From IMG/VR virus record IMGVR_UViG_3300027749_000034: a DNA stretch of 64,000 bases; one strand, given 5' to 3'. Each line of letters opens with the position of its first letter. Positions within the stretch are counted from its first letter, which is position 1. A program made the position numbers and the translations under genes. The stretch is from a virus. Taxonomy: Duplodnaviria; Caudoviricetes. The notes under the pieces were generated by a model that was not told where the DNA came from, made no database searches, and saw nothing but the letters and a program-made list of their open reading frames with translations. Shown one piece after another: positions 57,859 to 58,094 of this stretch.

Positions 57859-57887
57859 TAGACTTCTAAGTTAAAAGGATATATAAT
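57859..57887 (+). promoter_or_regulatory. sigma70-type promoter of the tRNA-array leader
   Basis: TAGACT-17-TATAAT with ATG 6 nt downstream. Confidence 0.75.
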
Positions 57888-57893
57888 AATACT

Positions 57894-57959
57894 ATGTTAA
57901 ATGTAAAATTGTTACCAGGTAATACAGGACCAGCCACAGAGGATACTCCGAGGCCGTAA
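57894..57959 (+). CDS. putative attenuator leader peptide MLNVKLLPGNTGPATEDTPRP (21 aa)
   Basis: Leaderless ATG at the predicted TSS; stop codon lies in the antiterminator 5' arm. Confidence 0.55.
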   Translation: MLNVKLLPGNTGPATEDTPRP

Positions 57960-57981
57960 CTCTACGCATAGTGAGATTACA

Positions 57982-58013
57982 GGCCCTGGAAATAAAAACT
58001 CCGGGGCTTTTTT
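57982..58013 (+). terminator. attenuator-type intrinsic terminator
   Basis: GGCCCTGGA-9 nt-TCCGGGGCT-TTTTT, just before the first tRNA. Confidence 0.8.
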
Positions 58014-58018
58014 ATTGT

Positions 58019-58094
58019 GCGGGCGTAGCTCAGTTGGTAGAGCATTACCTTGCCAAGGTAAATGTCGTCGGTTCGAACCCGATCGCCCGCTCCA
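58019..58094 (+). tRNA. tRNA-Gly(GCC)
   Basis: Cloverleaf with TACCT-TGCCA-AGGTA anticodon arm; encoded CCA. Confidence 0.95.

Follow-up and report, generated by a model that had tools for sequence, protein, structure and literature searches.

What does a short open reading frame (ORF) do between a promoter and an intrinsic terminator, when the next gene behind that terminator is the first of a block of transfer RNA (tRNA) genes? The question is raised by IMG/VR virus record IMGVR_UViG_3300027749_000034 (Duplodnaviria; Caudoviricetes), of which a stretch of 64,000 nucleotides (nt) was analysed. This whole stretch is called the window below, and positions without a prefix refer to it. An earlier note, made by a model from the letters of the window, had proposed that the ORF at 57894 is the leader of an attenuator which senses the tRNA pool, its codons sampling the amino acids of the whole downstream tRNA array. 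From the comparison of related sequences we consider it likely that a ribosome-mediated transcription attenuator heads this tRNA block and that its leader samples the amino acids of the block. The proposal of a tRNA-sensing attenuator passes comparative tests on the ORF, on the RNA helices and on a second module found in relatives, but a single early stall, which was part of the proposal, is probably not the on-switch. The elements of the locus are as follows.

57859..57887, plus strand: sigma-70-type promoter (-35 TAGACT at 57859-64, 17-nt spacer, -10 TATAAT at 57882-87)
57894..57959, plus strand: putatively leaderless leader ORF of 21 codons (ATG at 57894, stop TAA at 57957-59)
57933..57954, plus strand: weak 1:2 hairpin (GCC.C.GAG / CUC.G.GGC) inside the leader ORF
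57947..57962, plus strand: region 2, 5' strand of the antiterminator (UCCG-a-GGCC-GUAA-CUC), comprising the last four leader codons and the stop; mimics region 4
57973..57990, plus strand: region 3 (GAG-a-UUAC-a-GGCC-c-UGGA), partner of region 2 in the antiterminator or of region 4 in the terminator
57981..58016, plus strand: predicted intrinsic terminator (10-base-pair stem 57981-57990/58000-58009, 9-nt loop, T-run)
58019..58094, plus strand: tRNA-Gly(GCC), first gene behind the terminator, 2 nt past the U-tract
58137-58165 and 58244-58272, plus strand: two consensus promoters after the first tRNA (11/12 and 12/12 consensus matches)
58332..61307, plus strand: rest of tRNA block 1 (Glu, Leu-UAA, Asp, Asn, Met, Ala, Val, Thr, Pro, Gly-UCC)

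Our re-reading of the sequence agreed with the earlier note on the promoter, on an ATG next to the expected transcription start, on the 21-codon ORF and on a terminator with stem and T-run just before tRNA-Gly; both of the promoters reported further downstream are also present. The first promoter has 10/12 consensus matches, and its -35 element, TAGACT in the window, is TTGACT or TTGACA in relatives. There are 6 nt between TATAAT and the ATG and no Shine-Dalgarno sequence ahead of the ORF. Because this is the usual distance from a -10 element to the start, position +1 is predicted to fall on the A of the ATG. The peptide encoded in the window, MLNVKLLPGNTGPATEDTPRP, is referred to as leader 1. 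Two of the 10 base pairs (bp) in the terminator stem are G-U pairs, and the T-run extends over 58008-58016. A generic terminator scan passed over this hairpin, the sole cause being a loop limit of 8 nt. Given its distance of 2 nt from the U-tract, tRNA-Gly(GCC) has no promoter of its own and would be producible by read-through alone. ARAGORN and Rfam agreed on the 11 tRNAs of block 1, with Gly-GCC first and Gly-UCC last; the array content listed in the earlier note, with all ten of its amino acids occurring in the leader and only K and R outside the set, was borne out by ARAGORN. Searching 46000-64000 with Rfam at E <= 1 returned tRNA and transfer-messenger RNA (tmRNA) models only, with no match to leader, riboswitch or T-box families. 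A hairpin, GTTGTAGAAATACAAC, occurs at 58100-15 and again at 58208-23, each about 20 nt ahead of a consensus promoter, and is found in relatives too.

Relatives were retrieved from IMG/VR and from JGI lake-metagenome contigs by means of the neighbouring 180-amino-acid protein, which is 76-96% identical among them, and of DNA patterns. A blastn search against public phage records matched the tRNAs only and gave no annotated relative, and the nearest record (G001) does not have the module region. The leader was found in eight DNA variants that encode six peptides. In all of them the ATG lies exactly 6 nt past TATAAT and the length is 20-21 codons, the sole length change being a 3-nt in-frame deletion. 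The peptides share a core of MLN..LLP and, later, TP. The stop codon lies within the antiterminator helix in every variant, even where TAA is replaced by TGA. Pairwise differences between variants comprise 184 amino-acid-changing and 65 silent ones, and the variable sites are spread evenly over the three codon positions (9, 9 and 11). The frame is selected and the peptide hardly so; therefore, a leader peptide fits these data and a functional micropeptide does not. Both the ORF and the antiterminator, on whose retention in homologs the earlier note had staked its proposal, are kept in all relatives. The Pro-stop ending, which it had regarded as a stall context, is not conserved, and relatives end in G-A or Q-A. 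Elsewhere in the window, the long ORFs at 25307, 27277, 39178 and 48078 (also 21238) have their ATG 5-8 nt past a good -10 element with a -35 element at 17 nt, and leaderless messenger RNAs (mRNAs) seem, from such spacings, to be common in this phage.

The competing helix described in the earlier note, GGCCGTAA (57952-59) with TTAC-a-GGCC (57977-85), is able to pair. The helix is longer than had been described, however, and joins 57947-57962 with 57973-57990, covering nearly all of the terminator's 5' arm. It extends over this arm because region 2 (ACUCCGAGGCC) mimics region 4 (ACUCCGGGGCU), a likeness also seen in classical attenuators. When the whole transcript is folded at equilibrium under a ribosome mask, the outcome is invariably the terminator; the informative fold is that of a transcript ending before region 4. 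In folds of such transcripts the 2:3 helix is predicted in every lineage. The calculated energies across lineages are -18.5 to -22.1 kcal/mol for the 2:3 duplex versus -12.4 to -16.5 kcal/mol for the 3:4 duplex, and in no lineage is the antiterminator less stable than the terminator. Placing a ribosome mask at the stop codon leads to loss of 2:3 and formation of the terminator. The fold predicted for the full-length RNA has the weak ORF hairpin at 57933-57954, a middle hairpin and the terminator. The first of these may be a pause hairpin, and its GGC is also needed by the antiterminator.

Covariation of the helices in related phages, which had been suggested as a check on the proposal, was indeed found, as both antiterminator and terminator change by compensatory substitutions. 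The 9-bp core GGCCGUAAC/GUUAC.GGCC of the antiterminator becomes GGCUUGAUC/GAUCAAGCC between clades; 4/9 pairs differ in both strands, and clade B has UCU/AGA in place of CUC/GAG. The terminator has a C-G pair replaced by U-A, and one of its positions is U-G, U-A or C-G. Covariation was judged by folding each sequence and by a region-swap test, because the MAFFT alignment (A1) misregisters the inner helix between clades, in which the bulges differ. The region-swap test is moderately discriminating, since the G-rich region 2 of lineage C1 pairs with every region 3.

A second, paralogous module lies 12.7 kb downstream of module 1 in relatives. It was located via its terminator stem at L043:13157-13345 and is also present in G002, G004 and G006. 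A 16-mer scan for it gave 38 loci, 16 of which have a terminator and an ORF, the remainder being chance hits. Module 2 has a consensus promoter with the ATG 7 nt after the -10 element, in an ACTATG context like that of module 1. Its ORF, leader 2, has 37-39 codons and was found in ten variants whose lengths differ by multiples of 3 only, with pairwise differences of 499 amino-acid-changing versus 214 silent. The last codons and the stop (CCA GGA TAA) lie inside a helix, GUCCAGG...AAGUAA / UUACUU...CCUGGAC, which competes with a terminator carrying the CCCUGGA stem that is common to module 1. The block behind it, block 2, encodes tRNAs for Met, Arg, Cys, Lys, His, Phe, Gln, Ile, Trp, Ser and Tyr, to which some lineages add Leu at the far end; the Tyr gene was missed by ARAGORN and confirmed by Rfam. 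Two features of the neighbourhood may be recorded here. Between terminator 2 and the next promoter the relatives have a conserved, GC-richer stretch of about 180 nt (L043:13345-13520) without a match in Rfam, and clade B carries an insertion just past terminator 2, an ORF of about 70 codons that has a Shine-Dalgarno sequence.

The composition of the two leaders was compared to a background of 32,178 residues, drawn from long ORFs of the window and of four loci related to it. Residues of the block-1 set (G, E, L, D, N, A, V, T, P) account for 57.3% of this background, and those of the block-2 set (R, C, K, H, F, Q, I, W, S, Y) for 40.0%. In leader 1, 18-19 of 20 residues belong to the block-1 set (p = 2e-4 to 2e-3 across variants). 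The enrichment claimed in the earlier note is therefore significant, but its value of p near 0.004 at about 60% background is corrected to 0.0018 (18/20, 57.3% background). In leader 2, 25-28 of 36-38 residues belong to the block-2 set in 9/10 variants (p = 1e-3 to 4e-6), and the variant of lineage C1, which has a larger block 2, reaches 22/38 (p = 0.02). In the four lineages checked, leader 2 contains each of the eleven block-2 amino acids, Met among them. Fisher tests of leader versus set gave 2e-5 to 3e-7 in three lineages. Of 20-residue segments of phage proteins, 0.9% reach the level of leader 1; the level of leader 2 is reached in real proteins at 0.4% of positions. In the other reading frames, each of which is interrupted in at least one variant, the set fraction is 0.22-0.80; shuffling the nucleotides reached the observed value in 0.01-0.8% of trials.

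When the last codons, which the RNA switch constrains, are left out, the residues that match a lineage's own block number 14-16 of 15-16 in leader 1 and 27-30 of 30-32 in leader 2. Under strict wobble rules, leader 1 has 15-16 codons read by block-1 tRNAs only versus 1-2 read by block-2 tRNAs only, and leader 2 has 21-23 block-2-only versus 5-8 block-1-only codons, five of the latter being last codons that are fixed by the switch. Residues that replace one another in leader 1 also tend to stay within the set (11/14, p = 0.03).

A co-variation of leader content with array content between lineages, envisaged in the earlier note, is seen for Leu-UAG/CTA, Glu, Pro and Thr and is accompanied by several mismatches, given below. 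Clade B is the only one to have tRNA-Leu(UAG) in block 1 and the only one with CTA codons in leader 1; a leader 2 without Leu is found only in clade B and its sister L171. C1 is the only lineage whose block 2 has tRNAs for Glu, Pro, Thr and Val; it also has an Asp tRNA there, as does C3. Leader 2 of C1 alone gains E and an extra P, and it carries T and D as well. In lineage C3, the two Asp tRNAs of block 2 are paralleled by two D residues in leader 2. The co-variation is real but incomplete, and it is support rather than proof, the lineages being few and related.

We propose the following mechanism, of which the start of transcription, the translation of the ORF, the termination and the direction of the response are what we infer. 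Host RNA polymerase would start at or beside the A of ATG 57894 and produce a leaderless mRNA, on which a ribosome would translate the 21-codon test ORF, made up almost entirely of amino acids that the tRNAs of the downstream block carry. If the ribosome is late or absent, region 2, which contains the stop codon, would pair with region 3, the terminator would be blocked and the polymerase would go on to transcribe tRNA-Gly(GCC) and what follows it. With fast decoding, the ribosome would be at the stop codon in time and region 2 would be masked, so that 3:4 would form and transcription would end in front of the tRNA. The result would be a negative feedback in which the promoter transcribes the block when the block's own kinds of tRNA limit decoding. 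In relatives, module 2 would guard the second tRNA block likewise. Given a weak 1:2 hairpin and a strong 2:3 helix, read-through is probably the default in this model and would be turned off by a ribosome that arrives at the stop early enough.

Several observations weigh against this mechanism or narrow it. The caveat of the earlier note that the attenuator might gate only part of the output is justified by the strong promoters at 58137 and 58244, and module 2 also has a further promoter between its terminator and the tRNAs, which leaves partial gating only. The sensor cannot be specific for phage tRNAs, because host tRNAs read the same codons. Codon choice within amino acids adds little to the match (16 vs 12.9 expected in leader 1, 25 vs 24.6 in leader 2), and the replacement residues of leader 2 are within the set in 22/41 cases, which is not significant (p = 0.3). 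Leader 1 has residues without a tRNA in block 1, namely K in the window, I in clade B, F in C1 and Q in C2 and C3; conversely, the block-1 tRNA-Lys of C2 and tRNA-Cys of C1 have no matching leader codon. Asn is present in every leader 2 and its tRNA is absent from block 2, the Val tRNA and V are opposed in leader 2, and leader 2 of clade A contains D without an Asp tRNA. At equilibrium the full-length RNA of the window is predicted to favour the terminator by 3.6 kcal/mol; therefore the choice would have to be kinetic and set by co-transcriptional order, like known attenuators. Lake metatranscriptome contigs from four runs cover the leader, and some run through the terminator into the tRNA. 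These contigs are de Bruijn unitigs whose ends and depth give no transcript start, stop or level, and they show that the leader-terminator stretch occurs in RNA libraries and no more. Lastly, a single narrow phage family supplies all sequences and the lineages are not independent.

Some of the same observations would be expected from an attenuator of a more generic kind, which senses the pace of the ribosome relative to the polymerase, that is, overall translation capacity, and in which the composition match is functionless. The switch architecture needs no matched codons, codon choice within amino acids is close to the general usage of the phage, the replacements in leader 2 show no significant bias for the set, and there are the mismatches between leaders and blocks. 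Such coupling does not, however, predict two paralogous modules with complementary, frame-specific compositions which follow the split of the tRNAs at the Fisher values given above, nor lineage-specific gains and moves of tRNAs that are mirrored in the leaders, and we regard it as unlikely. We are more doubtful still of a stand-alone small gene, in which the product would be a small RNA (sRNA) of about 120 nt, a micropeptide or both, and the tRNAs would come from leak-through and from the downstream promoters. A promoter followed by what looks like an efficient terminator is how sRNA genes are usually built, the boundaries fit, downstream promoters are present, and attenuator-derived sRNAs and trans-acting leader peptides have been documented in Sinorhizobium (PMC6614838, PMC7298713). 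The fast evolution of the peptide with a kept frame argues against a functional micropeptide, though, and a stop codon that is always inside a covarying helix competing with the terminator points to translation; tRNA-Gly(GCC) depends on read-through, and the composition match would be left unexplained. The stand-alone gene and attenuation could coexist.

The remaining two explanations are very improbable. If the terminator simply ended the upstream 180-amino-acid gene and the ORF were spurious, one would understand why no terminator lies between the end of that gene (57854) and the leader and why low-depth RNA contigs bridge the two. Yet the ATG and the frame are conserved, indels keep to the frame, the stop holds its place, the helices covary and a second module exists, and this chance arrangement is practically refuted. 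A captured branched-chain leader that senses Val or Leu supply is brought to mind by the resemblance to the E. coli ivbL leader to which the earlier note pointed. The string match was verified, as residues 5-12 of E. coli IvbL (MLNAKLLP; the record sequence begins MTTSMLNAKLLPT) are identical to the first 8 leader residues in L001 and L021 and agree at 7/8 residues in the window, with 19/24 nucleotides identical by eye. Nothing else is shared, however, and we see no evidence of a common function. The Val/Leu codon run is absent, there are no ilv genes and tRNA genes lie downstream instead, there is no similarity past residue 8 or in RNA structure, and relatives differ from one another at residues 4 and 5. 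A degenerate ivbL motif, scanned against 596 Gb of genomes, gave at least 120 places. Among the matches listed, the leader occurs only in Escherichia and Enterobacter, the others being unrelated frames, and no intermediate linking ivbL to the phage leader turned up. We give this origin hardly any credence and leave the match as an unexplained coincidence. A separate likeness was noticed in a contig of Stenotrophomonas maltophilia ATCC 19867 (L051), where a 20-codon ORF starts with MLNAKLLPG and has nine residues in common with the phage leader; this is probably chance in a GC-rich genome.

Beside the attenuator that we favour, other short ORFs and genes of the region deserve mention. In clade C, but not in the window, a promoter (TTGACA, 17 nt, TATACT) is followed after 6 nt by a putatively leaderless 14-codon ORF upstream of leader 1 (L007:6560-6640, also L008 and L011). 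Its peptide is MM(T/K)HFSIAGSISIR, it contains three ATA codons, and it directly precedes a 92-nt tRNA-Ile(UAU), the reader of ATA; its stop codon lies in a hairpin with no U-tract after it. At 54099 of the window a perfect TTGACA, 17 nt, TATAAT promoter lies 6 nt from the ATG of a 12-codon ORF (MCHVTTHSRITR), which by its spacing could be another leaderless short ORF. Two other candidates were rejected. An ORF at 57616, out of frame in the upstream gene and behind TACAAT, lacks both a -35 element and a terminator and varies in length. A contig end at 57890 was not accepted as a transcription start, the overlap of about 29 nt with the neighbouring contig marking a graph break. Within block 1, small ORFs are interspersed among the tRNAs. 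One of them is an RpoZ homologue, the 74-amino-acid ORF at 59123-59347, whose product has a match to the omega family of RNA polymerase subunits (Pfam RNA_pol_Rpb6, E = 1.2e-9). The ORFs at 59840-60409 and 60587-60835 have their stops inside tRNA-Val (60400-60409) and tRNA-Pro (60826-60835), respectively. Further upstream, 47161-47550 contains a tmRNA gene with the tag ANDSQFALAA (Rfam beta_tmRNA, 136 bits; the permuted model matches too), and by this model match the host may be betaproteobacterial.

Returning to the attenuator, it may have a wider bearing. We see the chances as evenly balanced that, in phages with large tRNA sets, the tRNAs are split into blocks which are each autoregulated by a leaderless test ORF sampling exactly its tRNAs, as a homeostat of decoding speed that could restore tRNAs depleted by host defences or by phage-induced turnover. 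If true, a readout of ten or more tRNAs would explain the splitting of the blocks and the promoter-terminator pairs at their heads, as well as how a phage could adjust its tRNA production to demand; it would also offer a compact natural sensor of decoding speed. Control of tRNA genes in textbooks is at the level of the promoter, by growth rate and the stringent response, and to our knowledge a feedback on tRNA genes derived from decoding has not been described. Full-text literature searches found no leader-peptide attenuator of tRNA genes and nothing on the control of tRNA sets by phages, a field that is little studied.

The closest known systems are the multivalent attenuators of enterobacteria, namely ilvGMEDA (Ile/Leu/Val), thr (Thr/Ile) and ilvBN (Val/Leu), together with trp and his. 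Like these, the phage module has a short ORF between promoter and genes, mutually exclusive 2:3 and 3:4 helices, a stop codon in or beside region 2 such that a finished ORF favours the terminator, and, as in the multivalent cases, more than one amino acid sampled. Unlike them, it precedes tRNA genes instead of biosynthetic enzymes, its mRNA is predicted to be leaderless, and its leader has no tandem runs of a single codon but 1-3 codons apiece for about ten amino acids, spread over the ORF. The antiterminator, and not 1:2, is predicted to be the structure that is most stable early on, so that read-through is probably the default. With E. coli IvbL in particular, the likeness ends at the MLNAKLLP start of close relatives, as the amino-acid run, the structure and the operon all differ. 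The T-box also ties translation-related genes, those of aminoacyl-tRNA synthetases and amino-acid genes, to tRNA status by a choice between terminator and antiterminator. In that system the RNA binds uncharged tRNA directly with no ORF or ribosome, whereas the phage module would use both, and our Rfam scan gave no T-box match.

Mycobacterial leaderless polycysteine short ORFs are described as cysteine-responsive attenuators (bioRxiv 10.1101/834739). There, too, a leaderless short ORF stands at the 5' end of an operon and its translation sets downstream expression, but only one amino acid is sensed, the targets are protein-coding and the host group is another one. In the his-leader "speedometer" (PMC4046918, PMC11805395) an attenuator reports the decoding speed of a single codon and of individual tRNAs. 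This readout of decoding speed is the very property that we propose for the phage leader, although the speedometer is an engineered assay in Salmonella and not a natural control of tRNA genes. Set beside all of these systems, the mechanism proposed here is a new use of a known principle.

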